Below, in pieces: positions 3,248-60,325 of a stretch of DNA of 64,000 nucleotides. Made by a program: the position numbers and the translations under genes. Position 1 is the stretch's first letter. Each line of letters opens with the position of its first letter. Source of the DNA: a candidate division WOR-3 bacterium (lineage in GTDB: Bacteria; Hydrothermota; Tepidihabitantia; SM23-42; JAOAFX01); assembly GCA_037443805.1 (NCBI GenBank), contig JBBINQ010000010.1, positions 172 to 64,171 of the forward strand, in the 5' to 3' direction. The notes below the pieces were generated by a model, which searched no databases, was not told the origin of the DNA, and saw only the letters and a list, made by a program, of their open reading frames with translations.

Positions 3248-3592
3248 ATAAAAAGTATGTGATAGTTTTAAAATGGCGGAGGTGTAATTTTTTATCACCG
3301 ATAAAAAAAAGACCGAAGGGTATTTATTCTTTTGAGAAAAACTCTTTTTTTATATTGGAAAACAATTTCTGGGCTTTGGTCAAACATGTTACTGCACCTT
3401 AAAGTTTTTTTTCTGCCAGCTCAAGTTCATCAGTTAAAACCCAAGTTCAGATTCTGTAGTAATCCAATACATTTGCATAATTACCAAGAAAATTATAAGC
3501 ACTACCAAGATTATTTATACAATTGCCGCCCAAGGAAAATCCCCATACTCCCCATTTGAAAAAGGGGGATTAAGGTTCAGCAATCTCTTATC

Positions 3593-3620
3593 TTGACATA
3601 AATTTTTTGTTCATTATAAT
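3593..3620 (+). promoter_or_regulatory. Near-consensus sigma70 promoter: TTGACA, 16-bp spacer, TATAAT. It sits 10 nt before the ATG at 3630 and would give a leaderless or very short-leader mRNA.
   Basis: The sequence cTTGACAtaaattttttgttcatTATAATcataaaactATG is read directly. Confidence 0.5.
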
Positions 3621-3629
3621 CATAAAACT

Positions 3630-5354: not shown

Positions 5355-5456
5355 ATAACATATTCCACTAATTTACAATAATATAATTAGCCACAAAATT
5401 TTTATTATTATTCATCAAATTATTGACATAATAAAAGAAATGTATATTATATAGAT

Positions 5457-9276: not shown

Positions 9277-10872
9277 ATGAGATTTTTGTTGACCATTCTC
9301 TCAATACTCTCTCTTTTGAACGGTGTAGTTATAAAAGATGTAATTGTAAAGTCTGAGGGAGTAAATACAAAATTAATTCTTGAAGCAGATGGTTCATTTA
9401 TTGCCAATGCCTTCAGTCTTAAAGACCCGTCACGGATGGTTGTTGATTGTTCAGGTGTATCCAGCGACCTCGTAGGCAAAACATATGCAGTTAATGCTGG
9501 AGGTATAAAACAAATATCTTTGACCGGGTTTGCGGGACAACCTGACCTGATTAGAGTAGTTGCACAATTAAATCAAGACTATTCTTTCTTAACCGCCACC
9601 GAAGGAAATAATTTTGTAGTAACATTGCTCACTGGGCTCACTGCACCAATACCTCAGTGGCAGGCAGCGGTTGCCCAGGCAACAGCATCTGCTCCTACAG
9701 AAGCACCTCCGCCAGTGGTTCCTACCTCAAGACCACCTGTGAGTATTACTGGACGCCCAATAAGCATTGACCTTGAAAATGCTGATATCTTAACTGTTTT
9801 AAGAGCACTATCCGAATATGCTGGTGTTAATATTGTTGCGGGCAAGGATGTAAAAGGAACAGTCACAGTAAGATTACATAATGTTCCCTGGCATCAGGCA
9901 CTGGAAATTATTCTGCGTGCTGCTGGCTATGCATACCGTGAAGACCCGGGAGTGATCCGCGTTGACACCGCAGAAAACCTTGATAAACAGGATTTTGATT
10001 TACCACTCATCTCCAATATTTATAAACTTGAATTTGCAAATCCCAGTGAGATGCTGAATAAAATTCAGGCAATGCTCTCGCCAAAAGGCAAGGCAAATGT
10101 TGATGAAAGAACAAATTCCGTAGTGGTAACCGAAGTTGAACCCATCCATGATAAGATTAAACAATTGGTAAAATTACTGGATACCCCTACTCCACAGGTT
10201 GAGATTATGGTAAAGGTCGTTGATGTGGATGCTTCACAGTCCCAGGGGCTCGGTATAAACTGGACTGTAAAGGGATTGGAAAGCAGACTGCTCCGTGCCG
10301 ACCTAACAAGTAATCCCAATCCTGCCATTGCCGGCTATGGTGTGTTTAATATCGGTTCTGTTCCTTCTCTTGCCCAGGTATCAGCAACAATTAATCTGCT
10401 TGAAGAAAATGGCAAAGCCAACACAATCTCTGCTCCGCGCGTATCCGCAGTTGATAATAAGAGAGCATCAATCCTCGGTGGACAGCGCTTTGGTATACCA
10501 ACAAGGGATATTGCAGGAAATACCGTAATCCAGTTCTATACTGTGGGTACTAAACTTGAGGTAACACCGCACATAAATTCACTGGAAGAGATCACTATGG
10601 AAATCCATGCTGAAGTGAGTGAACTTGACCGTGCTTCAGCCCTTGCTGGCAGACCCATCATTACTACTTCAGAGGCAGATTCCAAAGTTCTCGTAAAAGA
10701 TGGAAATACCGTAGTTATCGGTGGCTTTATTAGAAAAAAGGAAACCAAAAGTGTCAAGGGAATACCAATCCTTAAGAGCATCCCCATTATCGGCGCCCTA
10801 TTTAGAGAAACAACCACAACCTATGAAGACCGTGAACTGTTGATATTTATTACACCGACAATAATCAAGTAA
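9277..10872 (+). CDS. pilQ: Type IV pilus secretin PilQ
   Basis: AMIN-like N-terminus, secretin-N domains (GVNIVAGKDVKGTVTVRLHNVPWHQALEIIL), and the C-terminal secretin signature VKGIPILKSIPIIGALF...RELLIFITP. Confidence 0.85.
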   Translation: MRFLLTILSILSLLNGVVIKDVIVKSEGVNTKLILEADGSFIANAFSLKDPSRMVVDCSGVSSDLVGKTYAVNAGGIKQISLTGFAGQPDLIRVVAQLNQDYSFLTATEGNNFVVTLLTGLTAPIPQWQAAVAQATASAPTEAPPPVVPTSRPPVSITGRPISIDLENADILTVLRALSEYAGVNIVAGKDVKGTVTVRLHNVPWHQALEIILRAAGYAYREDPGVIRVDTAENLDKQDFDLPLISNIYKLEFANPSEMLNKIQAMLSPKGKANVDERTNSVVVTEVEPIHDKIKQLVKLLDTPTPQVEIMVKVVDVDASQSQGLGINWTVKGLESRLLRADLTSNPNPAIAGYGVFNIGSVPSLAQVSATINLLEENGKANTISAPRVSAVDNKRASILGGQRFGIPTRDIAGNTVIQFYTVGTKLEVTPHINSLEEITMEIHAEVSELDRASALAGRPIITTSEADSKVLVKDGNTVVIGGFIRKKETKSVKGIPILKSIPIIGALFRETTTTYEDRELLIFITPTIIK

Positions 10873-10921
10873 TAGGATTTCTATATCGCCTGAATAAATA
10901 CAGAAAACAATAATATCTCAT

Positions 10922-10956
10922 AAACCCCGGACACACAATTGTGGAGTTCGGGGTTT
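10922..10956 (+). terminator. Intrinsic terminator after the pil operon
   Basis: AAACCCCGGA cacacaattgtggag TTCGGGGTTT gives a 10-bp stem with one G-U pair, followed by an A/T-rich tail. Confidence 0.5.
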
Positions 10957-10977
10957 ATAAATATAAAGCACTTAACA

Positions 10978-11523
10978 ATGAAGATTATCAGTGGTTCTAA
11001 CAAGGGCCAATACCTCAAGGTTGCACGAACAGGCATAAGACCGACAAAAGGAATCGTTCGCTCCGCAATATTTAATATATTGAGCGAACAAGTTAACAAT
11101 GCCTTTGTGATAGATATTTTTGCGGGAACTGGTGCACTGGGCATTGAGGCATTATCCCGTGGCGCAAAATTCTGTATTTTTATTGAAAATCATCCATCAA
11201 TCCTGATAGAAAATATAAAGAAATTAAGTCTTCAAACGAAAACAAAAATAATAAAAAAGGATTTTAGACCCGCACTGAAACAATTGCGCGAAACAAAATT
11301 TGATATCATCTTCATTGACCCACCTTATAAAAAAAATTATCTTGTTCAGGCTCTAAAATTACTTTGTTTTTATTCGCTTATTGCAAAAAATGGAATTGTC
11401 GTTGCTGAACACTCCCATCACCATCCCCGGACAATCCCTCCCGAATATATTGTCCTTAAAGAAAAAAAATATGGTGATACATTTGTATCATTTCTAACAT
11501 TAAAAGAAAACAAGAAGGAGTAA
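10978..11523 (+). CDS. rsmD: 16S rRNA (guanine966-N2)-methyltransferase RsmD
   Basis: Motifs IFAGTGALGIEALSRGA and FIDPPY. The start is chosen at MKIISG rather than the ORF-track ATG at 10939, which lies inside the terminator. Confidence 0.75.
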   Translation: MKIISGSNKGQYLKVARTGIRPTKGIVRSAIFNILSEQVNNAFVIDIFAGTGALGIEALSRGAKFCIFIENHPSILIENIKKLSLQTKTKIIKKDFRPALKQLRETKFDIIFIDPPYKKNYLVQALKLLCFYSLIAKNGIVVAEHSHHHPRTIPPEYIVLKEKKYGDTFVSFLTLKENKKE

Positions 11524-11528
11524 AAAAA

Positions 11529-12011
11529 ATGAAAAAGGCAGTCTATGCTGGAACATTTGACCCGATTACTTATGGGCACATTGATGTCATTGAACGGGCA
11601 ACAAAAATTTTTGATAAAATAATTATCGGCGTGAGTGGAACTCCTAAAAAAACTTTTTTTACTCTTGATGAAAGAATATCTATGATAAAAACCATTTACC
11701 AGAATCATCCGAAGATTATTGTTCAGGGATTTTCAACATTATTGGTAGATTTTGTTAAATCTGTTTCTGCTAAAACTATTATCCGTGGTATCAGGGCAGT
11801 ATCTGATTTTGATTATGAGTTTCAGCTCGCCTTAATGAATAGAAAATTAAATCCTGATATTGATACACTTTTTCTAATGCCTTCAGAAAAATATATATTT
11901 ATTAATTCATCACTGGTTAAGGAGATTGCTTATTTGGGTGGTGATATTTCAAAATTGGTGCCGCCGGTTGTCCGGCGTAGTTTAGCAAAAAAATTAAATT
12001 TTAGACCTTAA
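11529..12011 (+). CDS. coaD: Phosphopantetheine adenylyltransferase
   Basis: MKKAVYAGTFDPITYGHIDVIERA contains the HxGH-type nucleotidyltransferase motif. 160 aa. Confidence 0.9.
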   Translation: MKKAVYAGTFDPITYGHIDVIERATKIFDKIIIGVSGTPKKTFFTLDERISMIKTIYQNHPKIIVQGFSTLLVDFVKSVSAKTIIRGIRAVSDFDYEFQLALMNRKLNPDIDTLFLMPSEKYIFINSSLVKEIAYLGGDISKLVPPVVRRSLAKKLNFRP

Positions 12012-32468: not shown

Positions 32469-32472
32469 GTAT

Positions 32473-32499
32473 TGACTTTTTTAAAAGAATAATTATAAT
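32473..32499 (+). promoter_or_regulatory. Sigma70-like promoter upstream of the selenoprotein candidate: TTGACT, 15 bp, TATAAT, then AGGAGG
   Basis: The sequence aTTGACTtttttaaaagaataatTATAATatagtagaaaaAGGAGGtcttATG is read directly. Confidence 0.4.
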
Positions 32500-32520
32500 A
32501 TAGTAGAAAAAGGAGGTCTT

Positions 32521-33585
32521 ATGAAGCCAAAGGGTTATCTACCTTTAAGTCTGCTTCTGGGCATTATGCTCTTGAGTGCTGGCTTTTCTGCCCAGAGGGT
32601 AGTGGTCTGTGAAGAACTCTACCAGGAAGGCTGAGGCTCCTGTAATCCAGCCAGTGGGACACTGGCTCAGATTGCAATAAACTATCCAGGTAGGGTTGCT
32701 GCTATAGAGATGCATATCAGTTCAAGTTACCCCCTGTATTGTGCTGAAGCACTACAAAGAATGTATTCTTATCCACCGCCATATTATTATGGTGGTTCGT
32801 GGTACTATGCAACACCCTGGCTCTGGTATGATGGAGACCCGCATGGAAGTTATGACTATTCACAATGGCAATCAAAGATTGTCACTGAAATGAACAGACC
32901 AGCACCATTCACCTGCACAATGTGGGGCATTTATACGCCATTAAGAGGGACTGGCACAGTCTATGCAAAATTCCGTAATGACTCTACTGCAACTCTAACT
33001 GGTCGTATCCGCTTTGTGTTGACTGAAGATAGTTTATACTATTCTGCACCCAATGGTGACCTCTGGCACAATCATGTTGCCCGCGATTATCTACCAGACA
33101 CAAGTGGAACACCGGTCACGCTTGCTCCTAATGATTCAATAACAGTGAGCAGAAACTTTACTGTCCAGTCAGGCTGGAATGCAAACAAGTGTGAAATTGT
33201 TGCCTGGATACAGAGCACGGCCTTGCTTTCTGATTCTACAAGGGACATCTGGCAGGGCGGTCTAATAAAGGTTTCTCAATTGACCTATGTTGCTGAAGAG
33301 AATACTGAAAATTCATTAACTGAGAGAATAGGACCAAGCCCGAACCCCTGTGTGAACAAGACTACTTTCAATTTTAGACTAAATAGTAGTACACTATACC
33401 AGATCAATATCTTTGATGTAGCAGGCAGAAAGATACGCACAATTAAGGGTCTGGCAACTGGTAATGAGCAGAAAGTAGAATGGGATTTAAAAGATGCTCA
33501 AGGAAAAAGAATGGGTTCTGGTGTATACTTTTATCAATTTGAAAGCAAAGAGACCAACGCAAGCGGGAAGATTGTAATAAGATAA
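32521..33585 (+). CDS. Candidate secreted selenoprotein. It has a signal peptide, an in-frame UGA at 32632-32634 inside a U-G-S-C (UxxC) redox motif, and a T9SS C-terminal sorting domain. The ORF track shows only the part from 32710.
   Basis: A strong RBS precedes ATG 32521, followed by MKPKGYLPLSLLLGIMLLSAGFSAQRVVVCEELYQEG-TGA-GSCNPASG.... The frame stays open through the track ORF to 33585. An 8-bp hairpin AGCCAGTG-gga-CACTGGCT at 32649-32667 begins 14 nt after the UGA. The C-terminus GPSPNPCVNKTTFNF...IFDVAGRKI...GSGVYFYQF...KIVIR is Por-tail-like. selA, selB and tRNA-Sec are adjacent. Confidence 0.55.
32649..32667 (+). promoter_or_regulatory. SECIS-like hairpin downstream of the in-frame UGA
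   Basis: AGCCAGTG-GGA-CACTGGCT is a perfect 8-bp stem positioned 14 nt 3' of the UGA, inside the coding region. Confidence 0.4.
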
Positions 33586-33603: not shown

Positions 33604-33644
33604 GGGCGGATGCTGTAAATACAATGCATCCGCCCTTTTTATTT
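33604..33644 (+). terminator. Intrinsic terminator after the selenoprotein candidate
   Basis: GGGCGGATGC-tgtaaatacaat-GCATCCGCCC followed by TTTTTATTT. Confidence 0.65.
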
Positions 33645-33712: not shown

Positions 33713-33740
33713 TTGACTTATTATTTTTTTTTAGTATAAT
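33713..33740 (+). promoter_or_regulatory. Sigma70-like promoter: TTGACT, 16 bp, TATAAT. It sits 6 nt before the selA ATG, giving a leaderless-type transcript.
   Basis: The sequence cTTGACTtattatttttttttagTATAATcaaataATG is read directly. Confidence 0.45.
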
Positions 33741-33746
33741 CAAATA

Positions 33747-35135
33747 ATGCCAGAAATTAAAGAATTAAAGGATATACCATCCATAGATAAAATCTTAAAT
33801 TATAAAGAATTGCAGGATTTTGCGGAAAAATTAGACCATTCATACTTAGTCTCAATCATTCGCAATAAAACCGACGAAATTAGAAAACAGATAATTGTTG
33901 GAAAAAAAATTACCATTGAAGATTTCAAAAATGCAATTATTAACGAATTAAATGAGTTTATTACTCCATATTTTTCCTATGCAATAAATGGTTTGGGTAT
34001 TGTGCTCCATACTGGATTGGGAAGGGCACCATTTGTAAATGGTGTTACAGATGCACTGAAATCTATCAGCATTGGTTATTCTTTGCTCCAGATTGATGAA
34101 GAAGGAAAAAGGTCTGACCGTTACAAAAAAATAAACAAACTACTCCAGATTATAACTGGCGCTGAAGCAGGTATCTTTGTGAATAACAATGCTGGTGCAA
34201 CACTATTGATTTTAAATACCATTGGCAAAGGTAAAGAGATTATTATTTCCCGTGGACAATTGATTGAGATTGGTGGTTCTTTCAGAATTCCTGATGTAAT
34301 GGCGCAGAGCGGTGCAATATTGCGTGAAGTAGGGACGACCAATCGCACGCATTTGAAAGATTATGAATCTGCAATAAATGAAAATACTGCGGCGATATTA
34401 CGTGTACACCAATCAAATTATCGTATTATGGGTTTTACAAAAGAGGTTCCCCTTGAAGAACTCGTTGCACTCGGAAAGAAGCATAATCTACCAGTCATTG
34501 ATGACCTCGGCAGTGGTGCATTAATTGATTTTTCAAAGTATAATTTGCCAAAAGAGCCAATGGTTCAGGATAGTATAAAAGCCGGTGCAGATATTGTCTG
34601 TTTTAGCGGCGATAAACTCATTGGTGGTCCACAGTGTGGAATAATCATTGGAAAAAAGGACTATATTGAACGGATAAAAAAGAATCCCCTTACAAGGGCA
34701 TTGAGATGTGATAAATTGACAAGTTCAGTGCTTGAGGCAACGCTCCAATTATTTTTAAGAAAGGAAGAAGAAATATTAAAAAAACATACTGTTATCTCAT
34801 TGTTATTAAAACCGCTCGAGGAAATAAAAAAACAGGCACGGGTATGTGCAAAAAAGATAGCGTCTATACCTGATATTAAATGTGAAATAAAACCTTCGGT
34901 CTCTGAAATCGGTGGTGGTTCACTAAGCACTGAACAATTACCTACCTATGTCCTTGCGGTCAAATCAAATAAGATAACAGTAGAGAAACTTGCGCGGCTT
35001 TTGCGACTCTATAAACCACCAATATTTGGCAGGGTGGAGCAGGATTATTATTTGATTGATTTCCGAACCGTTTTAAAGGGTGAAGAAAAAATAATTGCTG
35101 AAGCATTGTATAATATTCTTGCAAAAAATGAGTGA
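33747..35135 (+). CDS. selA: L-seryl-tRNA(Sec) selenium transferase (selenocysteine synthase)
   Basis: [13 protein letters not shown] matches the SelA NATGVVLHTNLGR motif. The PLP-lysine region is [19 protein letters not shown]. 462 aa. Confidence 0.85.
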
Positions 35136-37050
35136 ATTACCAAAAAAACATATTGTCATTGGCACTGCCGGGCATATTGACCATGGTAAGAGTGCACTCA
35201 TAAAGTCTTTAACTGGAACAGACCCTGACCGTTTGAAAGAAGAAAAAGAACGGGGCATGACAACAGACTTGGGTTTTGCCTTTTATGGTGACGATGTAAC
35301 AATCATTGATGTCCCCGGACATGAAAAATTTGTCAGACATATGCTTGCCGGTGCAAGCACTATAGATTTTGTGATATTTGTCATTGCTGCTGATGATGGT
35401 GTTATGCCCCAGACCATTGAACATTTTGAAATATTAAAATTGCTCCAGATAAAGAAAGGTGTGATTGTTGTCACCAAAATTGACCTTGTAAAAAAAGAAC
35501 ACCTGGATACAGTCATTGAAGATATCAATAATCTAACCAGAGACTCTTTTTTACAGGATGCACCAATAATACCCGTATCAAATACCACTGGTGAAGGCAT
35601 TGATAAATTAAAAATTATTTTAAATGAACTGATCAGTAAAATTGAAACAAAACAGGATAAAAAAATTTTCTATATGCCTATTGACCGTTGTTTTACAATG
35701 AAAGGCTTTGGCACAGTAATTGCTGGAACCATTCTTTCCGGGAAGATTAAAATCGGTGATACTGTAGAACTTTTACCACACAAAAAACAGTTAAAAATTC
35801 GGGGAATTGAAGTTCATAATAAAAAAGTTGAAGAGGTAGGAACAGGTTATCGCGCTGCAATAAATATTGTTGGTGCAGAAAAAGAAGAGATTGAAAGGGG
35901 AAATGTAATTGCCCAACCCGGATACTTTGAACCTTCTTTATTTATGAACGGTTCTTTATATCTTTTAAATTCTGCCCCGGGTTTAAAAACCTTTACCAGA
36001 GTAAGAATCCATATCGGCACGAGCGAAGTCCTCGGACGGGTCATCATCCTGGAAAAAAAGAGTATTGAACCAGGTGAAAAGGCAATGGTCCAGTTTCGCT
36101 TAGAAACTCCAGCAGTATGTGATATTGGAGATAGGTTTGTAATCCGCAGTTATACACCGGCGATGACAATTGGTGGTGGTGTAATCTTAGAACCGAGGGC
36201 AGAAAAGATTAAGGCATTTGATGAGAAGATTCTTGAACATTTACAAAAAATAGAGACCCAGGACCCGCTTGTGCTTGTGGAAGAAGACCTGAATCAAAAT
36301 TGTACCATACCCAGAAAAGTTGAAGACATTGCGAAAGATGTGAATCTTAATTTAGAAACTGTGAAAAATCTGATTAGAGAACTATTAAACCGAAACGCAG
36401 TGGTTGTAATTGATGAAAAAAAAGGATTATATTTCAGTACGAAAAACTTCACAGAGTTAAAAAATAAAATTCTTGAAATCATAAAAGATTATCATCACAA
36501 TAATCCCACACATTTAGGAATACCCAGGCTTACATTGACAACACATCTTCCCAGGGGATTGGATAATAGCCTATTTAATTTTGCAATCAATCAATTAAAA
36601 CAAGAACAGAAAATTAATATTGCTGAAGATGGAAAGATTAGTCTTTATGACTTCAAGGTCTCATTAAATAAAGAACTTGAAGCATTGGTTCAGAAAATAG
36701 AAAAAATATTTTTGGATGCCAGATTTCAGCCGCCAGAAATTGAAGTTTTAATAGAACAGAAAATCGGGACTCCTGATTTAATAAAAAAGGCTTACCGATA
36801 TTTGCTTGATAACGGCACACTGATTTTTGTTGGTGAAGGGATTGCCTTTCATAAAGATATGCTGGAAAGTGCAAAAACAAAATTAATCAATTTTTTAAAA
36901 GAACATAAAGAGATAAGGGTTGCTGATTTCCGTGATTTAATCAATGCCAGCAGAAAGTATGCCCTGCCCCTTTTAATCTATTTTGACACAAAAGGTATTA
37001 CTATTAAACGGGGAGAAGTGCGTGTTTTAGGCATTGGCGGAGGCGTGTAG
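35128..37050 (+). CDS. selB: Selenocysteine-specific translation elongation factor SelB
   Basis: [30 protein letters not shown]...[17 protein letters not shown] is a GTPase domain. The long C-terminal extension carries the winged-helix domains that bind SECIS. The ATG at 35128 overlaps the selA TGA (ATGAGTGA), so the start is placed there rather than at the ORF-track 35095. Confidence 0.85.
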
Positions 37051-37130
37051 GAATCGAACCTACCGTCCCCCTTTCGAAGGACAACCGGGTTTGAAGCCCG
37101 TCAGGCACACCAGCACCCATCCGCCTCCCC
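37035..37130 (-). tRNA. selC: tRNA-Sec with anticodon UCA (ends approximate)
   Basis: The reverse complement reads GGAGGCGGATGGGTGCTGGTGTGCCTGACGGGCTTCAAACCCGGTTGTCCTTCGAAAGGGGGACGGTAGGTTCGATTCCTACACGCCTCCGCCA. The anticodon loop is CT-TCA-AA, the variable arm is long, the T-arm is GTAGG-TTCGATT-CCTAC, and the acceptor arms are GGAGGCG and CGCCTCC followed by G-CCA. Confidence 0.7.
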
Positions 37131-37462: not shown

Positions 37463-38929
37463 ATGGCATCTTTTTATGGCTCGGATTTTAAAATAAATTT
37501 TGAAAAAACCAACCAAATTGGAGCTGCTTGGTATAGCTATGTTGAACCAGGATATTGGATTTATAATTATGTCCGGATAGATACCGCAGGTAATATTTTA
37601 ATGGACGCACGTAATTTTGATAGTAAAGATGTTTTTTGGCACAAATTCGACATCTTGGCAGACGCGTATAATCCCAATCCGCATCTAAAATATTTAACTG
37701 ATGAACAGGGGAATAGTATTATAATTTATAATTATTATGTGGATGAACAATCAGGTGAAGGCTGGAAATTAGCATGGGTAAAAATCGATACTTCATTTAC
37801 TTTGTCACACAATACTTTAAATGGAACTTCCAAAAGCAACTCTTTCACAGTCTACGCTTCCAAAAAATATGATTTTCATCTGATAAATGGCGGTGAATAT
37901 AGAAAGCGCACTAAGTCAGAGCGAGTGAATTTTTTGAATTACGAATTTCATTATCAAAAAAAGAAACCGCATCTTATACCTCCAAGTCATTTTATAGAAA
38001 CAAGTGACAATAATTTGTTGTGCCTTAGCCATTATCGTGATTCTGCCGAAATCCATTATCAGTGTATCTCTCCAAAAGGTAAATTCTTATTTGGCAGCAG
38101 AGCAAAAATTAATCATGTAGCTGCTATTATCTGGGACAATCTTGACTTACCATATTGTGAAGAGATTTTTCAATGGAACGGTACTATATGGTATATAACG
38201 ACCGTCCCTTCAATCCATTATCGCGGTCAAAATAGTATAGTCTTGATTGTATTTGATAAGAAAGGAAGGATAACGAAACATAAGGCAGTATTGAAAACGA
38301 AGCTCTTTTCCATTGATAGCTTACCGGGTAACGCAAAACGATTTATTTATTTCTTAAAAAAAGTGATCTATTATTTGGGGATTGATAGCAATGGTAATCT
38401 TTATTATTGGAATAGCAAACGAGGATATATAGATTATAACCGAGCCGATCTCTTTGCCCCATTTTTTGCAGTTCATTATAACCATGTAAAAGACAGTTTT
38501 TATAATCCATTAACTGAAAATAACTTATATCCAGACAGCATGAACGAACTCTCTCTTTGGTCAAAAGGCGGTAAACTGAAACACAATATGAAATTGTTAA
38601 TTGGATGTAATAAACAAAGTAAAACTTATATGCCGGGTGAACTTATTGGCATACGGTGTGGGATTATTCATGCAAATTTAAACGAAAGAGTATTTTTAGC
38701 CAAAGCCCATTATAGCCCCAATAAGTGTGGTTGGCCTCCGGAAATTACTATCCATATCAATGCTCCAGCAGACGCCATCAGAGAAAAAATGCATTTAGGA
38801 TATTTGGGAGATGATTGTATTTTTATAAATCGTCCAAAATCAGAAATTCGTTTTGACAAAGATGCAGTAAAGATTTTTTTAAAAAAGTTTCGCCCCTTAT
38901 TTAATAAGCAGCATCAGGTGATAGCTTGA
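37463..38929 (+). CDS. Hypothetical protein (488 aa), Tyr/Asn-rich, with no recognisable domain
   Basis: Long open frame. An in-frame signal-peptide-like ORF (37337-37447) lies just upstream, separated from it by a single TAG. Confidence 0.4.
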   Translation: MASFYGSDFKINFEKTNQIGAAWYSYVEPGYWIYNYVRIDTAGNILMDARNFDSKDVFWHKFDILADAYNPNPHLKYLTDEQGNSIIIYNYYVDEQSGEGWKLAWVKIDTSFTLSHNTLNGTSKSNSFTVYASKKYDFHLINGGEYRKRTKSERVNFLNYEFHYQKKKPHLIPPSHFIETSDNNLLCLSHYRDSAEIHYQCISPKGKFLFGSRAKINHVAAIIWDNLDLPYCEEIFQWNGTIWYITTVPSIHYRGQNSIVLIVFDKKGRITKHKAVLKTKLFSIDSLPGNAKRFIYFLKKVIYYLGIDSNGNLYYWNSKRGYIDYNRADLFAPFFAVHYNHVKDSFYNPLTENNLYPDSMNELSLWSKGGKLKHNMKLLIGCNKQSKTYMPGELIGIRCGIIHANLNERVFLAKAHYSPNKCGWPPEITIHINAPADAIREKMHLGYLGDDCIFINRPKSEIRFDKDAVKIFLKKFRPLFNKQHQVIA

Positions 38930-47869: not shown

Positions 47870-50797
47870 CTATTTAAGTTTGACCACCTTCTGAATTAAG
47901 ACCTTTTCAGGGCAATCTAATCTCACAAAATATACACCAGCAGGAAGTTTGCGGCCTAAATCGTCGTCGCCATACCACAGAACATAATTAAATTGGTAAT
48001 TGGTTAAATGGTTAAATTGTTTTACCAATCTACCCGTCGCATCATAGATCTTCAATTTGGTGTTTGGGATTTGAGATTTGGGATTTGTTTGGAATTTGGT
48101 GCTTGGGATTTGGAATTTCATCACAAGGTGATTCCTGAATGGATTTGGATAAACTTTTAGTTGTGCACTTATAGATTTTTCAGATTCTTCAATCCCCACA
48201 TATCCGGCAAGATTACCAACTTCCCAGTCAAGGAGCGCTGGATTACTCGGCGATTTTGTAATCCTGTAGAACAAACCTTTCAAGCGTATCGTGTTATAAG
48301 TAACTGTATCAACATTGGTCAATTTTATTGTATCTATAGGAAAGGTCGTAAAGAAACCCGTCGCATTTCCGGGTAGAATAGAATTTGGTATTAGCTGCCA
48401 GTTTGAGCCAGTATAGTATTCAACCTGGATACCAATAGAGTCACCAGCAGTTGCCTTGTGCCAGACTATATCACCCCATTTATTTCTTGGATAGGTTGTA
48501 GAGAGGTCATGGTAATATACGGGTGTTCCTTTAAGTTCACCATAATTTGTTAATTGATAACTATATCGTAGAAGAATATTATCAACTGCACAAGCCCATC
48601 CCCAGGTCGCACTGGTCTCTGTATAATACCACTCAAACTGCATTGAATCGCAGGGCAGATAAGTATTTAAATTGATTGTCTCGGTTCCAGAACTGCTTGT
48701 ATTATATTCACGCAATTGAACCCAGTTAGTCCAGGAACCACTAACAAAACGGCGCATCCTGAGCCGATAATAATCAGAAGATGAATAATCCCGGTAACCA
48801 TAGGCATAGATCAATTCCAGTCCACTGGTAATTCCTCCAACATAAATCTTTGGCGAAACCAACCCCTCTTCTAAACTCTGGGGTGCACTACTTCCTGCAT
48901 CATCATCAGAATAATATGCATACCTTGTGCCATAATCAGGTGGCACATAACTCCCTAAATCACCAGTAGTTCCGGTTGTCCAGTAATAATTATCATTGTT
49001 GCTATTCACAATTGTCCAGGCTGGAGGCATACCTGATTCAAAATTTTCAAATAATAGTGTATCAATTATGGTCTGACCAGAGGGCAATAATACTACACTA
49101 TCACCCTGAACCTGAGTGCCATTAAAAATATCATAGGCAAACTGTGCACCAGTAGTCTGATACCAGGAGCAGGTATTCTGGGGTAGACTCGTTCCAATCG
49201 TAAATGAGCGTTTTTCTGTGAATTGCGTCCAGAGACCGGTTCCGCCCGGGTCAGTGCACTTTACCTTCCACCAGTAAGTTGCTCCATCAATCAATTGTGC
49301 CGGCATAACAAAGTTAACAATTGAACCGCTCGGATATGTGGATGTTGTAGCACTATCTGGACTGACAAAATTCGGGTCATTATCCCACACAATCCTGTAT
49401 TGTATATTATCACCCTGCGGGTCAGTTGAACTAAATGACAGCGTAGGTTGTTGCACTGGTAATCGGGCAAAATTAAATGGTTTGATTATTTCTGGCACCG
49501 CTGGCATACCAGAAATGCCATAAGGTTTTATCAGAACTGATAATGCTGCAATCTCAGCTTTTATAACCTCGGTGCAGAATGCATTATTATTATAGCCTGC
49601 ACCGATTGTATCACTCGTCTGGTGATAATGGGGATTTGTGGGCCAGTAATCTTCAATATTACACAACCCAGGATAACCATTATCATAAAATGGTTGAATA
49701 TCAGATGGAATTGATGATACAGTCTGTTTAATTGTAAGTAGACTTGTGTAGGTATCAGCACAGGCAACAAAGAAATCAGCAAAAGGAACATTGGCACTAT
49801 TGGTGAGCACATCGCAATTCTCAGGTGCAGCATCAACATATCCAATCATATCACCATTTAGCACACCAAGGATAATATGCCCCTGCTGACTGGCATTGTT
49901 TGCATAATATTCGCTACCATAGAGTCCAAATTCTTCACCGCTAAAGGCAATAAACCTTGCGGAATATTCAAAAACATAATCCTTCATCACCCTCGCTGCT
50001 TCAATTGCTGCAACTGTGCCACTTGCATTGTCATCTGCACCCGGTGCAATGTTTGGTGCCTGGTTAGAAGTAGCATCAAAATGGCCATCAATGATTGCAT
50101 AAGTATCAGGATAGAGAACACCCCATTTTATACCAATGACATTGGGTGCATGGCCTGAGGTATGGTATTGAAAATAGACTGAATCGCAACCATATTCAAT
50201 AAATTTATTCCTTATCCAGTTTGCTGCAGCCTGACAGGAGTCATGTGTAGAATACCTGGTGCGGAAGTTCTGCAGTCTGCGCACAAAACTGAGCACAGTA
50301 TCAGGGTTCACTTTGTTAACAATCTCCTCAATAATTGGATGCCTGGACACCACAGGAAAAGCAGGCAATGATCTTCTAATTACTGGTTTAAATGAAAGTC
50401 GCACGACCTCAACTGGCTCCCGGGTCAATCGTAAGAGTCCTTGTTCATCTATTTTCATAAGCGTAATATTATTGTTCACAAATAAAATTTCTCCGAAACT
50501 TCGCAGGTCAACTGGTGTATTAAATTGATACACGAGATAATATTCACCTTCTTTTACATTTCTTTGAAGAATTTTATAATTGAATCCTGCTAATTTTGCA
50601 AGTTCAGAATCATCCATAATAATCAATGCATAATGATCCAGTTCTTTTATTATTTTTACATCACGCATATATAGAGGTTCAAGTCTCTGATAATTTAATT
50701 CCACACTGACAATATTTGTTCCTGCATAACAAATAGAAAAACCAACAAAAAAGAAAAACAAAAATAATTTATCAATTATTTTCATAATGAACCTCAC
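47870..50797 (-). CDS. M28-family metallopeptidase, large and multidomain, with a T9SS C-terminal sorting domain
   Basis: N-terminal signal peptide, an M28 Zn-ligand region HFDATS...GADDNASGTVAAIEAARV, and a C-terminus VYPNPF...IYDATGRLV...GVYFVRL...KVVKLK that is Por-tail-like. Confidence 0.7.
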   Translation of the reverse strand: MRFIMKIIDKLFLFFFFVGFSICYAGTNIVSVELNYQRLEPLYMRDVKIIKELDHYALIIMDDSELAKLAGFNYKILQRNVKEGEYYLVYQFNTPVDLRSFGEILFVNNNITLMKIDEQGLLRLTREPVEVVRLSFKPVIRRSLPAFPVVSRHPIIEEIVNKVNPDTVLSFVRRLQNFRTRYSTHDSCQAAANWIRNKFIEYGCDSVYFQYHTSGHAPNVIGIKWGVLYPDTYAIIDGHFDATSNQAPNIAPGADDNASGTVAAIEAARVMKDYVFEYSARFIAFSGEEFGLYGSEYYANNASQQGHIILGVLNGDMIGYVDAAPENCDVLTNSANVPFADFFVACADTYTSLLTIKQTVSSIPSDIQPFYDNGYPGLCNIEDYWPTNPHYHQTSDTIGAGYNNNAFCTEVIKAEIAALSVLIKPYGISGMPAVPEIIKPFNFARLPVQQPTLSFSSTDPQGDNIQYRIVWDNDPNFVSPDSATTSTYPSGSIVNFVMPAQLIDGATYWWKVKCTDPGGTGLWTQFTEKRSFTIGTSLPQNTCSWYQTTGAQFAYDIFNGTQVQGDSVVLLPSGQTIIDTLLFENFESGMPPAWTIVNSNNDNYYWTTGTTGDLGSYVPPDYGTRYAYYSDDDAGSSAPQSLEEGLVSPKIYVGGITSGLELIYAYGYRDYSSSDYYRLRMRRFVSGSWTNWVQLREYNTSSSGTETINLNTYLPCDSMQFEWYYTETSATWGWACAVDNILLRYSYQLTNYGELKGTPVYYHDLSTTYPRNKWGDIVWHKATAGDSIGIQVEYYTGSNWQLIPNSILPGNATGFFTTFPIDTIKLTNVDTVTYNTIRLKGLFYRITKSPSNPALLDWEVGNLAGYVGIEESEKSISAQLKVYPNPFRNHLVMKFQIPSTKFQTNPKSQIPNTKLKIYDATGRLVKQFNHLTNYQFNYVLWYGDDDLGRKLPAGVYFVRLDCPEKVLIQKVVKLK
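47936..48143 (-). repeat. Dispersed repeat: the T9SS CTD-encoding module, shared at about 85% nucleotide identity with 55794-56003. It contains an imperfect (GGRATTTG)n tandem tract at about 48061-48120.
   Basis: An identical 38-mer, acataattaaattggtaattggttaaatggttaaattg, occurs in both copies. The flanks are highly similar. The two host proteins are unrelated elsewhere. Confidence 0.7.
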
Positions 50798-50826
50798 TTA
50801 CCAATTTTTACCCCTCGCCCTCCAGT

Positions 50827-50855
50827 TTTAAACTAAGCGAGCAGAGGGTAGGACC
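50827..50855 (-). terminator. Intrinsic terminator of the S8 peptidase gene
   Basis: Perfect 12-bp stem GCGAGCAGAGGG-tagga-CCCTCTGCTCGC. Confidence 0.55.
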
Positions 50856-50878
50856 CTCTGCTCGCTCTCTAACAGCCT

Positions 50879-53800
50879 TTATTTCAGAAGAATTGCTTTT
50901 TTCGTATCAGTGAACTTGTCTGTAGTAAATTGATAGAAGTAGATACCAGATGCAAGTTTACGACCCACATCATCCTTACCATCCCAGATTACAGTATAGA
51001 AGCCTGGACTCTGTTCGCTGTCAACAAGTGTGCGCACAATCTGTCCGAGACAGTTGTATACCTTTAAGCTGACCTTTGCATTCTGTGGCACAGCATAATT
51101 GATGCGCACAATTCCTTTTGTCGGATTGGGCATAGGACTTGAAAGGCTATAACTCAAAGGCATACCTGTATTTGCCTCGCTAATGCCCTGGAGAGGACGG
51201 ATATCGCCATCAATCAGGGTGAATGTCCGGTAATACCAGGCGCCCCAGTTCTGTGCCCGATATGTCGCATTATCACGACCACGGACAAACAGAGAACAGA
51301 CGCGCACTGCACCAGGTGTATATATAAGTCTGATTGATGCGTTCACATCCTCTACAATCTCATTCCAGGTACCATCTGTAACCTGCATTGGCTGTTCACC
51401 ACTGGAATTTCCACTCGGGCTCTTGGCAATATAAGTTGCCGCACCAATCGTGCTCATTCCAGTCTCAGAATCACTAACAACTGCAGTAAATGCTAATAAG
51501 GTATCGGTAGCAGTCACGAACTTTGGATTATTGGCAACAACAATAGAGTTCGGAATCACCTTGGGACCCAAGTCATCATTTCCTGCGATGTTAATAGTAA
51601 AGTTACCTGTTTCAGCAAATCCCTTCATTGATGGATAGACATTCCTGTCATTCGCAGTAACACGGACCCGATAACTATTTCTGTTCTGCATTGCACTTAC
51701 ATTCCAGGAATATGGTGAAGTCATACCTGTGCCTGAAGCAATAGTATACCAGGTCTGTCCAGCATCAGGTGAATACTCAATCCAGGTTGTATCAATTACT
51801 GCACCACCATAGGCAGTCGCGGTCCAGGAGATTGTAATCGGGCTTGAGGTATATGTCTGACCACCAACTGGCGAAGACAGGGTCACATCTGGATGGTCAT
51901 GTCCGATGAGCCAGATGAACATATTATTGAGAATATCGGTCCTGGTCGCACTATTGGGATTGGTCGTATCAATCTGGGTGATCTCAAAGCCATTGAACAC
52001 TACCCTTGTCCTCTGGCCGCCCCAGACTCCATCACCTGGTGTTCCCATATTGTTTGTTGATTCCCATTTTATACCACAGGAATCATTTGCTGCATTACCA
52101 TGCCAGACATAGGTGCCAGTCCCTGCAGCACCAGTGCCAGAGAGTCGTATTGAATCACCAGCCGCACCTGAACGGAATGGTTGGTATGTAACACCTGCAG
52201 TATAATTACCAGAGATTGGGTCACCTGCAATACCCCTTACTGAAGTCCAGGATGTGGCAGTAATATCACCAATATAGCGGAAATGGAGCTGGTTCTTACA
52301 AAAGACCGTATCAACATGCGAATAAGCCCAGTTATCCCAGCCAACATCATGGCCAGTAAAGGCTAACCGTGCACCATTATCATGATATGTTTTGACCGTC
52401 TCTTTCTGTGCTACTGTAAAGACCGGATAGTTCTCCTGCGCAACCTGGAAATAGACCGCCTTATACCATTTCAGGTCGTTTCGTGTAAACTGGCCATTGG
52501 TCATCGTCACCCACCAGTTATAGGTCCAGCCACCAGCTTGTAATGCCCTATCCATAAATTCTGGATGGGCAAACTCCTCACCCTGATTACTATTATTCAA
52601 CAGAACAACGAGCACATCAATACCTGCCTGAGCCTTGGTCTTGAATGTATAATGGAGACCACCATTGTTGTCACGAACCGCATTACCACGAAAGTCCTTT
52701 GATTCTACATCATAATAATAGATGGTATTTGGCGTCAAACCTGCCAGCGTTACCCGGTGTGGCATACAGAACGGTGTATCCACCTGAGCAACAAGATTCA
52801 GATTGCTCGGATTCGTCCCATAATAGACCTTTGAATTTGCACCTTCATTTGTTGTCCAGCACACATCTGCTGACAGTGCTCCAATATTCTCACAGCGCAC
52901 ATTGGATATGGCAAAATACCAGGCATCAACCGCTGCCCAGGTCGTAGAAATATATGAAGGATTCGCATCAGTATAAGAGACATAGATGGTATCACCCTGG
53001 CACACAGACAACCTGCCATCACCATGTGTGGCGCCACGGAAAAGCAAGGGAAATTCTCCTTTAAATACATAAGAACTCTCTGCCATCTCCACACAACGAA
53101 GCGTCTCAGGCTGTGTCTCTATATATTTACCAGTGAGCACGACCCTGACCGTATCCCGAATACCAACTGCACCATAATTTGGGTCCTCAACCCTGACCCT
53201 GACCGTATCAATGATAAAGTCATTTGCCCGATAAACAGGCTTGTCAGTTGATACTGCGCCCGCAACAGTGGTTGCAGTATATGTAATTACAAGGGCAAAT
53301 GGCTGTGGTCCATAAGGAACATTCCTACCTTCAATGCGCACAAGCCAGTCACCTGCAGTAGGTGAGTTCACACGGATGCACTCTTCAACATTGAGAGAAT
53401 CCCGGTTTGCAGGATTTGCCACTGATTGCCCACCTGAATATTGATTGCCACGATAATATGTCCCACCAACCTGAGCGTATAAATCTAAATCATTGACAAT
53501 CTGTCTATTTACTGTTGGATTACCTGGATAATCGGTCCAGACAAGCGTAATCTTTAAAACACTCGCTCCAGAAGGCACACTGAAATGGAAATCTTTTCTC
53601 TCACCTGTGAGCACACCAATTGTATCATCAAGCACTAAGGTTTTACGGGCATCACCAGAAAAATAGAGTGTTGAATCAAGGTCAACCCTGCCCCAGCCAA
53701 TATTGTTATCAGGGACTGTATAACCAGTGATATTGGGGTCAGCACAGTTAATGAGTATCGCCTTTATCATTGCTGCACTGATATAAGACCAGGCATTACC

Positions 53801-55510
53801 CGCAACCTTTTTACCGGTTGGATACCAACCTTCACGCAGGTACTGTCTTGCCAGTGCGCCAGCACCAGCTGCACCAGGAGAAGCCATACTGGTTCCGGAC
53901 ATTGTAGAGAAACCGGTCGTTCCGTTAGTTGCAGATTGGATGCTGGATCCAGGTGTAAGGATTGTCGGCTTTATTCTATTATCATCGGTTGGTCCACGGC
54001 TCGTGATGGTATAATAAGACCGACAGGATGTTCCATTTAGTGTGCCACCCACTGACACGCAATTCTTTGCCGCGGCTGGAGACCCAACAGTATTAGCCCC
54101 ACCTGCATTGCCATTGCTGTAAAAGAGGAGGAAATCCTTATGTGCCCACATAAACTGGTCAACATTCAGACACATACTGGTATATGCACCGCCTGCGTCT
54201 GCACCCCAGGAATTTGTGCTCAGATAAGCACGAATACCATGGCTGGCATAATACTTGTTATAGGGACGAATGTAGAGGTCATTCAAATCACCAAAGGTAT
54301 AGATGGCAGGACTCGTATTGTCTCCGCAATCATTGTGATAGAGCCTTGCCATCTTGGCAATTCCGTCTCTATAATCTGAACCAAGTGTTGTATCATTCCC
54401 TGCTGTTGTGCATCCAGTATGTGTGCCATGATAACTTGCACCTGAGCCATCACCAAATACAATGTTTGCCGGTGCACCTGAATCATAGGCAACAATCTTA
54501 TTGTGCGTCGGATACACACCCCAGGTTGTAATCGCTGCACTGCCTGCACGATGCATATAATGACTGGTATTAATACCTGAATCACAATGATTGATGATCT
54601 CACCCTGACCAAGGATACCCATACCCCACATTCTGCGGGCAGTATTATCATTACCTGGCGGTGCGCTTGCCCAATATCCAGTCTGAACAACCCATTGGTA
54701 TTGCTGATTATGCATTTCCGGCTGAATATAAGGTTCAAGCCAGTATATCTCTTTTATCTGGGCAAGCGCAGGCAAATCATCCTTATTCAACATAACCCAG
54801 ACCATCTTGTTTATTCCATTATCTGAAGTAGTAACTTCATCTTCTCCACTTATTGCTTTTATCTGATTCACAACTGCCTGCATATCTGCATCATTAAAAA
54901 GGAGAATCGTTACTGGATGTCTATCATTTACCCTATCAAATAGTGCAGAAATCTTATAAGCAGGTTGATAAATGCCCATCCAGTTTACTGAAGGATTTGA
55001 AAGGATTGCATTCTTCTGTGATTGCCCTTTTAATGAAACCACAAAACCATAGTGTGGTATGTAGAAGTGAATCTTTATACCCTGGGATGCAAGCCAGTCT
55101 TTTTCAGGACCATAGATTGGTCCGGAAAACTGGACAATATAGTATCCTATTTCATCATCACGGTACTGGGTTTTTAAATGTGCTGGTAATTCTGGCTCCC
55201 CATTTTTACCAAGCAGTTTTGTATCAAATGAGATACCATTGGAAAAGACAATCTTTGTCGCATCACCATAGGTCACTGGCATAAACTGGGATTTTGTTTG
55301 AGCAGAGAATGCAGGAATCACATCATTGCGAATAATATTCTGCTCCACATTCTCTTTTGGCTGTTCATATTTTACCGGTTCCACCGGTATTGTTTTATGC
55401 TGTGGCACTGTTTTATTTGCACCCAGCACAAACGTCGCCATTATTAAGATTAGCAAGATTTTTTTCATCTCATCTCCTTTTTTTTGGCTCTGCGAGCCAC
55501 TATGCTTCAC
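50879..55510 (-). CDS. Giant S8-family subtilisin-like serine peptidase (1543 aa) with a T9SS C-terminal sorting domain
   Basis: Catalytic His in HGTHTGCTTAGN and Ser in GTSMASPGAAGAGALARQYL. Signal peptide. The C-terminus reads VKVYNCLGQIV...GIYFYQF...KAILLK. Confidence 0.8.
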   Translation of the reverse strand: MKHSGSQSQKKGDEMKKILLILIMATFVLGANKTVPQHKTIPVEPVKYEQPKENVEQNIIRNDVIPAFSAQTKSQFMPVTYGDATKIVFSNGISFDTKLLGKNGEPELPAHLKTQYRDDEIGYYIVQFSGPIYGPEKDWLASQGIKIHFYIPHYGFVVSLKGQSQKNAILSNPSVNWMGIYQPAYKISALFDRVNDRHPVTILLFNDADMQAVVNQIKAISGEDEVTTSDNGINKMVWVMLNKDDLPALAQIKEIYWLEPYIQPEMHNQQYQWVVQTGYWASAPPGNDNTARRMWGMGILGQGEIINHCDSGINTSHYMHRAGSAAITTWGVYPTHNKIVAYDSGAPANIVFGDGSGASYHGTHTGCTTAGNDTTLGSDYRDGIAKMARLYHNDCGDNTSPAIYTFGDLNDLYIRPYNKYYASHGIRAYLSTNSWGADAGGAYTSMCLNVDQFMWAHKDFLLFYSNGNAGGANTVGSPAAAKNCVSVGGTLNGTSCRSYYTITSRGPTDDNRIKPTILTPGSSIQSATNGTTGFSTMSGTSMASPGAAGAGALARQYLREGWYPTGKKVAGNAWSYISAAMIKAILINCADPNITGYTVPDNNIGWGRVDLDSTLYFSGDARKTLVLDDTIGVLTGERKDFHFSVPSGASVLKITLVWTDYPGNPTVNRQIVNDLDLYAQVGGTYYRGNQYSGGQSVANPANRDSLNVEECIRVNSPTAGDWLVRIEGRNVPYGPQPFALVITYTATTVAGAVSTDKPVYRANDFIIDTVRVRVEDPNYGAVGIRDTVRVVLTGKYIETQPETLRCVEMAESSYVFKGEFPLLFRGATHGDGRLSVCQGDTIYVSYTDANPSYISTTWAAVDAWYFAISNVRCENIGALSADVCWTTNEGANSKVYYGTNPSNLNLVAQVDTPFCMPHRVTLAGLTPNTIYYYDVESKDFRGNAVRDNNGGLHYTFKTKAQAGIDVLVVLLNNSNQGEEFAHPEFMDRALQAGGWTYNWWVTMTNGQFTRNDLKWYKAVYFQVAQENYPVFTVAQKETVKTYHDNGARLAFTGHDVGWDNWAYSHVDTVFCKNQLHFRYIGDITATSWTSVRGIAGDPISGNYTAGVTYQPFRSGAAGDSIRLSGTGAAGTGTYVWHGNAANDSCGIKWESTNNMGTPGDGVWGGQRTRVVFNGFEITQIDTTNPNSATRTDILNNMFIWLIGHDHPDVTLSSPVGGQTYTSSPITISWTATAYGGAVIDTTWIEYSPDAGQTWYTIASGTGMTSPYSWNVSAMQNRNSYRVRVTANDRNVYPSMKGFAETGNFTINIAGNDDLGPKVIPNSIVVANNPKFVTATDTLLAFTAVVSDSETGMSTIGAATYIAKSPSGNSSGEQPMQVTDGTWNEIVEDVNASIRLIYTPGAVRVCSLFVRGRDNATYRAQNWGAWYYRTFTLIDGDIRPLQGISEANTGMPLSYSLSSPMPNPTKGIVRINYAVPQNAKVSLKVYNCLGQIVRTLVDSEQSPGFYTVIWDGKDDVGRKLASGIYFYQFTTDKFTDTKKAILLK

Positions 55511-55553
55511 CTATTTTTTATTTTTCTGCATCACCTCCTTTTTTAATTATGAA

Positions 55554-55581
55554 ATTATAATAAAATTCTACCCAATGTCAA
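55554..55581 (-). promoter_or_regulatory. Sigma70-like promoter on the minus strand for the S8 peptidase gene: TTGACA, 16 bp, TATAAT, with AGGAGA upstream of the ATG
   Basis: The reverse complement reads TTGACAttgggtagaattttatTATAATttcat...aaaaaaaggagatgagATG. Confidence 0.4.
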
Positions 55582-55727
55582 TACCACCTTGATTATTCAC
55601 CCCATTGTTTTAACAGAAATTAGTTATTCGGTGAAGAAATAAGTACAGAAGTCAGAATTAAGAAGTTAGTCTTAAAAACATTATTCAGACTTCCAACCTC
55701 CATACCCACTTCCTCAACCAACGTCCA

Positions 55728-60254: not shown

Positions 60255-60281
60255 ATTATTTAGTTCTGATGTACAGGGCTG

Positions 60282-60308
60282 GAGGCACTGATTTGAAATC
60301 AGTGCCTC
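60282..60308 (-). terminator. Hairpin downstream of the second S8 gene, a probable terminator
   Basis: GAGGCACTGATTT-g-AAATCAGTGCCTC, a perfect 13-bp stem. The U-tract is poor. Confidence 0.4.
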
Positions 60309-60325
60309 AAGCCTATTTTAATCTC

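Follow-up and report, generated by a model that had tools for sequence, protein, structure and literature searches.

Does the in-frame TGA in the gene at positions 32521–33585 (+) of this stretch of DNA end translation, or is it read as selenocysteine (Sec)? The stretch, 64,000 nucleotides of contig JBBINQ010000010.1 from a candidate division WOR-3 bacterium, is referred to below as the window, and positions are those of the window unless another locus is named. An earlier note, made from the letters alone, had described the gene as a candidate novel secreted selenoprotein, and the present computational analysis followed up that proposal. Read through the TGA, the locus is a single gene of 354 codons with a TAA stop at 33583–33585. 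The TGA is codon 38 (32632–32634) and is followed in frame by 316 further sense codons; the sequence around it reads VVVCEELYQEG-U-GSC-NPA, in which Sec (U) takes the first position of a UxxC motif. The frame opens at ATG 32521 with the leader MKPKGYLPLSLLLGIMLLSAGFSAQ, and a Shine–Dalgarno (SD) sequence, AAGGAGGT (32510–32517), was read in the sequence 3 nt 5′ of that ATG. All of these elements, including the signal peptide, stand as the earlier note had described them. The public annotation gives 32710–33585 alone (P0001, 291 residues), beginning at an internal methionine, Met64. We regard the gene as almost certainly Sec-encoding, and the fuller reading, that of a thioredoxin-like selenoprotein precursor displayed through the type IX secretion system (T9SS), as very likely.

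A database search with the protein, U being replaced by Cys, gave 279 homologues (E ≤ 0.001), and among cluster representatives 159 matched the family at E ≤ 1e-30. For the best 120 of the 279 homologues, query coverage was just 62–89%, each being cut at or past the same point; these entries are stored as open reading frames (ORFs) that lack the signal peptide and the active site. Seventy-five homologous loci from 59 species-representative genomes, nearly all of candidate division WOR-3 or ‘Stahlbacteria’ and showing 33–99% identity, were translated upstream in frame, and the TGA column was read in the alignment. At 73 of the 75 loci, TGA occupied a single column of the pattern R-V-V-V-x-E-E-x-Y-x-E-x-U-x-x-C, and each of these 73 aligned genes had a start codon and a hydrophobic leader ahead of it. 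UxxC was invariant in all 73. Of the other two loci, one gave a partial match and one held a copy interrupted by the end of a contig. When the flanking sequences were searched by pattern, 15 more paralogues emerged, often in tandem, every one of them with the same TGA. In total, 88 genes carried TGA at the Sec column and none carried TGC or TGT. No close Cys form was found in the genomes scanned (the 75 loci plus flanks), and the clade appears, from these alignments, to consist of Sec genes throughout. When a 48-residue N-terminal profile (U to C) was run against 5.8 billion proteins, nothing was obtained at E ≤ 1, word-index sensitivity being the limit of that search.

The paralogues were located in the flanks of 15 loci (L010, L014, L016, L018, L020, L021, L028, L029, L033, L034, L036, L038, L061, L062 and L068), and at least 13 genomes carry two to three or more copies of the Sec gene. 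Shortened products were seen at L015 (139 residues) and L039 (259 residues), and L043 was a partial, degenerate-looking match.

If the TGA were an ordinary stop, the locus would be split into an upstream peptide of 37 residues and a protein of 291 residues that starts from Met 32710. All gene callers treated the locus in this way, and at other places in the window TGA does serve as a genuine stop, ending 10 of 41 long ORFs, among them comFC, selA and the 3630 gene. The UGA code is therefore not globally reassigned, as the earlier note had already argued. A genuine terminal TGA stop was also present in six members of the family, and no second credible read-through TGA ORF was found in the 64-kb window. 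Against an ordinary stop stands the conservation of frame and amino acids across the TGA in 88 genes. The earlier note had reckoned with homologues that begin at the internal methionine; what was found instead was upstream in-frame sequence with a signal peptide at 73 of the 75 loci. At the column of Met64 (32710) itself, methionine was present in 45 of the 73 genes and another residue in 28, and homologues called from alternative starts keep the conserved ‘...SGTLAQIAINYPGRVAAIE’ upstream of the internal Met. The expression signals, too, precede the long frame. In addition to the SD sequence, a sigma-70-like promoter (TTGACT-16 nt-TATAAT, 11/12 matches) was read at 32472–32499 (+), 5′ of the start of the long ORF and not of the internal Met. 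Moreover, distant homologues are full length and have Cys at this column, as described below. A protein starting at Met64 is implausible, because it would have a T9SS tail without the signal peptide that such a tail requires and a fold without strand beta1 and active site. Taking these observations together with the chance rate of hairpins given below, we consider an ordinary stop extremely improbable.

Sec decoding in bacteria calls for a selenocysteine insertion sequence (SECIS) just downstream of the UGA, and the earlier note had pointed to a perfect 8-bp hairpin 14 nt after the TGA. It was found at 32649–32667 (+), with arms AGCCAGTG (32649–56) and CACTGGCT (32660–67) closing a GGA loop that starts 22 nt after the UGA; its calculated free energy is −11.4 kcal/mol. 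The bacterial SECIS (bSECIS) consensus has a loop of 3–9 nt, an upper stem of 4–16 bp, G in the first two loop positions, a distance of 16–37 nt from the UGA and a minimum free energy (MFE) of ≤ −7.5 kcal/mol (PMC13188914). The window hairpin agrees with this consensus in its GGA loop, 8-bp stem, 22-nt spacing and free energy.

Conservation of the hairpin, the lack of which would have told against the proposal of the earlier note, was read in alignment A2, in which the 60 nt from the TGA onwards are aligned without gaps and in codon register for 73 genes. A 6–7 bp stem (columns 19/20–25 with 29–34/35) and a 3-nt loop were conserved. In the window, this core corresponds to 32651–32656 paired with 32660–32665, the seventh pair (32650/32666) being retained in about half of the genes. 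This core is kept with covariation, but the extra lower stem of the window (32641–47 with 32670–76) showed no conservation in the family alignment. The first loop base was G in 72 of 73 genes, and the second was U (50) or G (23). In the 7-bp core, 88.5% of cells were paired, compared with 18–41% when the 3′ arm was slid by 1–3 nt. The covariation score was 0.254 against 0.132 in shuffles, and none of 500 shuffles reached it. At the pair of columns 24–30, C-G occurred in 37 genes and U-A in 31 (Fisher p = 1e-14, kinship ignored). These two columns join synonymous third bases, that of a Ser codon with that of a Thr or Val codon. The adjacent pair alternates between G-C (34) and A-U (21), so that Gly-Thr and Ser-Val are coupled at the protein level. 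The corresponding alternatives in helix alpha1 are Ser-Gly-Thr (AGY GGN ACR) and Ser-Ser-Val (AGC AGU GUG), the window having codons for A-S-G-T-L at 32647–32667. At L058, L060 and L062 the sequence differs at the SECIS, and MFE folds still give a hairpin after the UGA.

The codons of the stem were also compared with those at control positions. Leu in the stem was CUG in 69 of 70 cases, compared with 4 of 69 at the conserved Leu of PWLW. Likewise, Ala was GCC in 65 of 67 (13 of 48 at a control position), and Ser was AGY in 73 of 73 (1 of 35 at another conserved Ser). In the window as a whole, CUG makes up 10% of Leu codons and the GC content is 37%. Within the stem, codon choice is forced. A SECIS with covariation and forced codons indicates selection on the RNA structure, for which plain read-through would have no need.

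A hairpin alone is weak evidence, because comparable hairpins stand at the SECIS position after about 12 of the 2,614 TGA trinucleotides in the window (about 0.5%, mostly terminators). This rate by chance is a point in favour of an ordinary stop. The excess over chance lies in the conservation of the hairpin across species. Rfam at gathering thresholds returned nothing but the tRNA-Sec in the window, and a permissive scan of 32560–32760 returned nothing relevant. A search of 781 kb for this hairpin downstream of in-frame TGAs in other genes gave further paralogues only. Hence that search was not an independent test, and the SECIS of a selD gene was used instead. This gene, found with the E. 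coli SelD sequence as probe, lies at 10558–11580 (−) of locus L025 in the related WOR-3 chromosome CP070834.1, about 4 kb from a paralogue of the window gene. It has an in-frame TGA of its own (HITCAG-U-ASKL), which makes the product a Sec-containing selenophosphate synthetase. In the SECIS of this selD, a 6-bp stem falls at the same columns, and a GU-containing loop begins at the identical 22-nt spacing.

The remaining decoding genes directly follow the window gene, as the earlier note had stated. A selA gene (selenocysteine synthase) lies at 33747–35135 (+; Pfam SelA, 478.6 bits). It is followed by selB at 35095–37050 (+), the Sec-specific elongation factor with winged-helix SECIS-binding domains (Pfam GTP_EFTU, SelB-wing_2, SelB-wing_3 and Beta-barrel_SelB). 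A tRNA-Sec with anticodon TCA lies at 37035–37128 on the minus strand (ARAGORN; Rfam RF01852, 76.9 bits). The association is not confined to the window, since selA/selB stand within 6 kb in five divergent loci. In BSepDB, two or more Sec pathway genes count as sufficient.

These results bear on the possibility that the TGA marks a pseudogene or a sequencing or assembly error, or that, independently of the Sec machinery, it is read as Trp, Cys or Gly. Near-cognate read-through of UGA does occur in bacteria, the sequences are metagenome-assembled genomes, and the copies at L015, L039 and L043 look degenerate or shortened. It is not credible, though, that 59 independent assemblies should share one and the same ‘error’, and a reassigned TGA is at odds with the ORFs that end in it. 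As for read-through without Sec, the covarying SECIS and the forced codons speak against it, as does the presence of selA, selB and tRNA-Sec next to the gene. This explanation is very improbable, scarcely less so than an ordinary stop, and we keep to a Sec-encoding gene.

Cys or Sec was to be expected at the aligned column of homologues, according to the earlier note. An exhaustive profile search brought out distant full-length relatives of about 340–355 residues that share the layout of the window protein: signal peptide, beta1 ‘RxVVxE’, motif, Omp28 domain and T9SS tail. In 15 of 17 distant full-length homologues the Sec column held Cys (CGPC, CPPC, CVPC, WCGCC and others), which bears out the expectation, as does TGA in the 88 genes of the clade. 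One distant homologue (P0228) is redox-dead, with SSPS in place of the motif and both Cys lost.

To place the motif in a fold, two structures were modelled: the window protein beginning with the residue that follows the TGA, and P0174, a full-length Cys-containing proxy about 31% identical to the window protein. The former gave a mean predicted local distance difference test score (pLDDT) of 80.8, with a weak N-terminus because strand beta1 was missing. The P0174 model (pLDDT 89.4) showed a canonical thioredoxin fold followed by a beta-sandwich and a C-terminal domain (CTD). Its elements are beta1 (26–32), alpha1 (39–56), beta2 (57–63), alpha2 (71–79), beta3 (87–90, after an invariant Pro), beta4 (94–97) and alpha3 (103–115). 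C36, the Sec-equivalent residue, stands just before alpha1, and C39 is in the first turn of alpha1. This topology was transferred to the window protein through alignment A7, in which the Pro before beta3 is invariant. The window protein is accordingly modelled as a thioredoxin fold in which the N-terminus of alpha1 bears the redox motif. The predicted thioredoxin-fold domain spans 32596–32895 and includes beta1 RVVVCEE, U38-G-S-C41, alpha1, beta2 and a cis-Pro-type ‘TPWLW’ strand. It is followed by an Omp28-type beta-sandwich domain at 32902–33285 (limits approximate), which contains an invariant polar cluster (E169, D170, S171, H183, N184 and R188). With the U→C sequence, the window protein scored above the gathering threshold of 34.9 bits for Pfam PF11551 (Omp28), and Por_Secre_tail was also matched.

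Both ends of the protein carry export signals. A hydrophobic N-terminal leader, read as a predicted Sec-type signal peptide, was present in 73 of 73 members. In the window it covers approximately residues 1–25 (32521–32595) and ends ...SAGFSAQ; the lipobox Cys is absent, and cleavage would fall near GFS/AQ (about residue 23–25). At the C-terminus stands a T9SS type A sorting domain (residues 274–354, 33340–33582), with 30.7 bits against a cutoff of 27 for Pfam PF18962 and 40.4 against 23 for TIGR04183. The Por/T9SS tail noted earlier was thus recovered by both models. Other proteins of the window carry such tails (M28, S8 and C25 peptidases), so the T9SS pathway is taken to be in use. From this cargo and by analogy with HBP35 (below), we consider export of the window protein by T9SS likely. 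The peptidases belong to a row of four secreted-protease genes, all very large, at 47870–63799 (−): M28 (975 residues), S8 (1543 residues), C25 plus FG-GAP (1508 residues) and S8 (1157 residues). T9SS type A tails were found on the M28, the 1543-residue S8 and the C25 proteins; the 1157-residue S8 protein had a FlgD_ig-like C-terminal match only. The C25 protein is weakly PorU-like (68.8 bits against a cutoff of 420).

The best structural match was HBP35 of Porphyromonas gingivalis (PDB 5y1a), and the earlier note was right to suspect a likeness to the thioredoxin-like motif of outer-membrane proteins exported by T9SS. In insulin reduction, recombinant HBP35 outpaces E. coli thioredoxin, an activity that depends on C48 and C51, as mutation of the two residues shows. 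Haem is bound by a part of HBP35 outside the thioredoxin domain, and the physiological role of the protein is haem acquisition. The Por/T9SS system carries it to the surface, and it is modified with anionic lipopolysaccharide (A-LPS) after removal of the CTD (PMC2907840, PMC3120885). Like HBP35, the window protein has a signal peptide, a thioredoxin domain with a dithiol-type motif, a beta-sandwich and a CTD, in addition to the structural similarity. HBP35 is its closest characterised relative, and the window protein resembles a Sec version of it.

Novelty was overstated in the earlier note, as an Omp28-type UxxC selenoprotein family is already described. The NCBIfam model NF045500, ‘Omp28-related selenoprotein’, was equated in a 2026 review with the hypothetical protein GOS_C, which has one Sec in UxxC (PMC13188914). 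GOS_C, a predicted selenoprotein, was reported by Zhang & Gladyshev in 2008 from marine surface metagenomes in 74 Sec and 312 Cys forms, with a thioredoxin-like fold and a predicted thiol-based redox function (PMC2398784). The window protein and GOS_C/NF045500 both have a single Sec in UxxC, a thioredoxin-like fold and Omp28-type homology, and window residues 24–254 align to model positions 37–271. Membership in NF045500 was nevertheless rejected: 11 clade members, the window protein at 32.6 bits and 10 others at 31.6–52.3 bits, scored far below the curated cutoff of 200. Cys-form relatives (41–73 bits) also fell below it. The scores of the clade against this cutoff therefore set it apart as a separate clade, homologous to NF045500 but not a member. 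Whereas GOS_C is marine and has many Cys homologues, the window clade comes from WOR-3 genomes and has Sec in all 88 genes. From these comparisons it appears to be a Sec-only, multi-copy sister clade, seen so far in WOR-3-type genomes; the clade would be new, while the superfamily and the decoding mechanism are known.

Unlike the Omp28 outer-membrane lipoproteins (PF11551, NF033782, PDB 2r2c), the window protein has a T9SS tail rather than a lipid anchor, and it has Sec. Its assignment to the Omp28 lipoprotein model NF033782 was rejected at 48 bits against a cutoff of 150, the lipobox being absent. The earlier note had also held that Sec proteins are overwhelmingly cytoplasmic, which goes too far. 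Periplasmic formate dehydrogenase is a classic non-cytoplasmic selenoprotein. The selenoprotein families catalogued in the review include thioredoxin, DsbA-like, DsbG-like and thiol:disulfide-interchange proteins (Table 1, PMC13188914), the last three of which stand against the earlier statement. With the Sec thioredoxin, DsbA-like and thiol:disulfide-interchange proteins, which are UxxC proteins, the window protein shares the thioredoxin fold, the replacement by Sec of the leading Cys in CxxC and a bacterial SECIS shortly after the Sec codon. Those three kinds of protein, however, are small, single-domain and cytoplasmic or periplasmic, while the window protein has three domains and a T9SS sorting signal. 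Searches of the literature turned up nothing relevant on Omp28 selenoproteins, Sec in WOR-3 or type IX-secreted selenoproteins, and neither ‘Omp28’ nor ‘WOR-3’ is mentioned in the main text of the recent catalogues of selenoproteins that were consulted.

A path from gene to enzyme can be proposed on this basis. SelB carrying Sec-tRNA(Sec) would bind the mRNA SECIS at 32649–32667 and insert Sec at UGA codon 38. By analogy with HBP35, the precursor of 354 residues would be taken across the inner membrane by the Sec translocon, with cleavage of its signal peptide. It would then pass the outer membrane by T9SS, lose the CTD and be held at the surface or released. Sec38, in the loop before alpha1, would act as the attacking residue on a substrate disulfide or another electrophile. 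Cys41, in the first turn of alpha1, would resolve the intermediate as a selenenylsulfide, making the protein a selenol/thiol-disulfide oxidoreductase. Of the parts of this reading, that last one is put forward with less assurance than export, as somewhat better than an even chance.

The serious uncertainty is functional, and lies between disulfide exchange and a ligand-binding or peroxidase-like role. An exported selenoprotein might mainly bind a ligand (haem, metal or chalcogen), or its Sec might serve a peroxidase-type, polysulfide or selenium-handling centre. The growth phenotype of HBP35 concerns haem use, its haem binding lies outside the CxxC domain, and the invariant cluster of the sandwich domain is unexplained by a redox model. 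In the same direction point the SSPS of P0228 and the lack of an evident reductant outside the cell. On the other side, UxxC is invariant in 73 of 73 genes, its Sec taking the attacking position in a thioredoxin fold, and the CxxC of HBP35 is catalytically active. A same-strand module also suggests a thiol-redox relay. It consists of at least one Omp28-type thioredoxin gene, followed by a TlpA-like AhpC/TSA-Redoxin gene (about 175 residues, WCxxC) and then a DUF6029 gene (about 500 residues), and was present at six loci (L014, L023, L026, L031, L035 and L075) as well as at the Cys-form locus L076, from which the P0174 proxy comes. The module is common to Sec and Cys forms and may be a redox partner system; neither its TlpA-like redoxin nor its DUF6029 gene was found in the 64-kb window. 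A main role other than disulfide exchange is accordingly a minority prospect, perhaps one chance among several, and an oxidoreductase is the function we prefer.

Several observations weigh against the reading of a T9SS-displayed, thioredoxin-like selenoprotein. Every family sequence comes from uncultured genomes. At the RNA level, the GGA loop of 3 nt is at the small end of the SECIS range, and the covariation counts ignore kinship among the 73 genes. No selD was found in the 64-kb window with the E. coli SelD probe, and the earlier note had made its case depend on that gene; the Sec-containing copy at L025 places selD in the lineage. The fold of the window protein rests on the P0174 proxy, its own model lacking beta1 and being weak at the N-terminus. 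The family profile gave a marginal sequence match to thioredoxins (E 0.004–1), and in a single-sequence search of PDB sequences the thioredoxin matches were non-significant (E about 2). T9SS machinery was not seen in the 64-kb window, which showed only CTD-bearing cargo. Outside the cell, such an oxidoreductase must have a partner that gives or takes electrons, and none was identified in the window. Finally, as the physiological role of HBP35 is haem acquisition through its non-thioredoxin part, redox may not be the main function here.

Most selenoprotein families interconvert freely with Cys forms. The occurrence of Sec in 88 of 88 genes, with several paralogues per genome, is therefore unusual. 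Since the genes recur beside selA, selB, tRNA-Sec and selD, the family could be a main reason for which WOR-3 bacteria keep the Sec machinery. We offer only tentatively the wider idea of obligately Sec-dependent, multi-copy oxidoreductases on the T9SS-served surface, with a TlpA/DUF6029 electron relay in some lineages. If true, this would amount to an extracellular selenoenzyme system in bacteria, one for which the clade has no Cys-containing equivalent. A selenoprotein exported by T9SS in any case becomes a concrete, testable proposition, and the gene links the Omp28-related GOS_C selenoproteins with HBP35-type T9SS surface thioredoxins, which were unconnected in the literature searched. The SECIS, lying within the codons of alpha1, constrains the protein and offers a clean case of RNA structure shaping protein sequence. 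The gene is systematically misannotated across an uncultured bacterial phylum (WOR-3), being cut at the Sec codon. With such N-terminally shortened entries and a curated model that misses the clade, Sec use will be undercounted in surveys of WOR-3 and related bacteria of the FCB group.

The arrangement of the neighbouring genes may be added. A terminator-like hairpin, read from the sequence at 33604–33640 (+) as GGGCGGATGC-12 nt-GCATCCGCCC followed by TTTTT, lies between the selenoprotein gene and selA; its loop is larger than the 8 nt to which our hairpin scan was limited. Because of this hairpin, the selenoprotein gene and selA are probably separate transcription units with similar promoters. 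The promoter-like motif found upstream of the selenoprotein gene recurs in identical form (TTGACT-16 nt-TATAAT, 11/12) 5′ of selA, at 33713–33740. The selB ORF as listed begins with TTG and has its first 41 nt in common with the end of selA (35095–35135), and the tRNA-Sec on the opposite strand overlaps the final 16 nt of selB (37035–37050). Directly past the tRNA-Sec lies a 488-residue ORF (37463–38929, +) that had no Pfam or NCBIfam match and was not present in the 75 related loci; its assignment as DUF6029 was rejected after comparison. At L001 (positions 2552–6022 of that locus), in the 99%-identical relative JBBILZ010000013.1, the selenoprotein gene and selA are separated by about 3.4 kb, compared with 160 nt in the window, a difference that marks an insertion or deletion between near-identical genomes.

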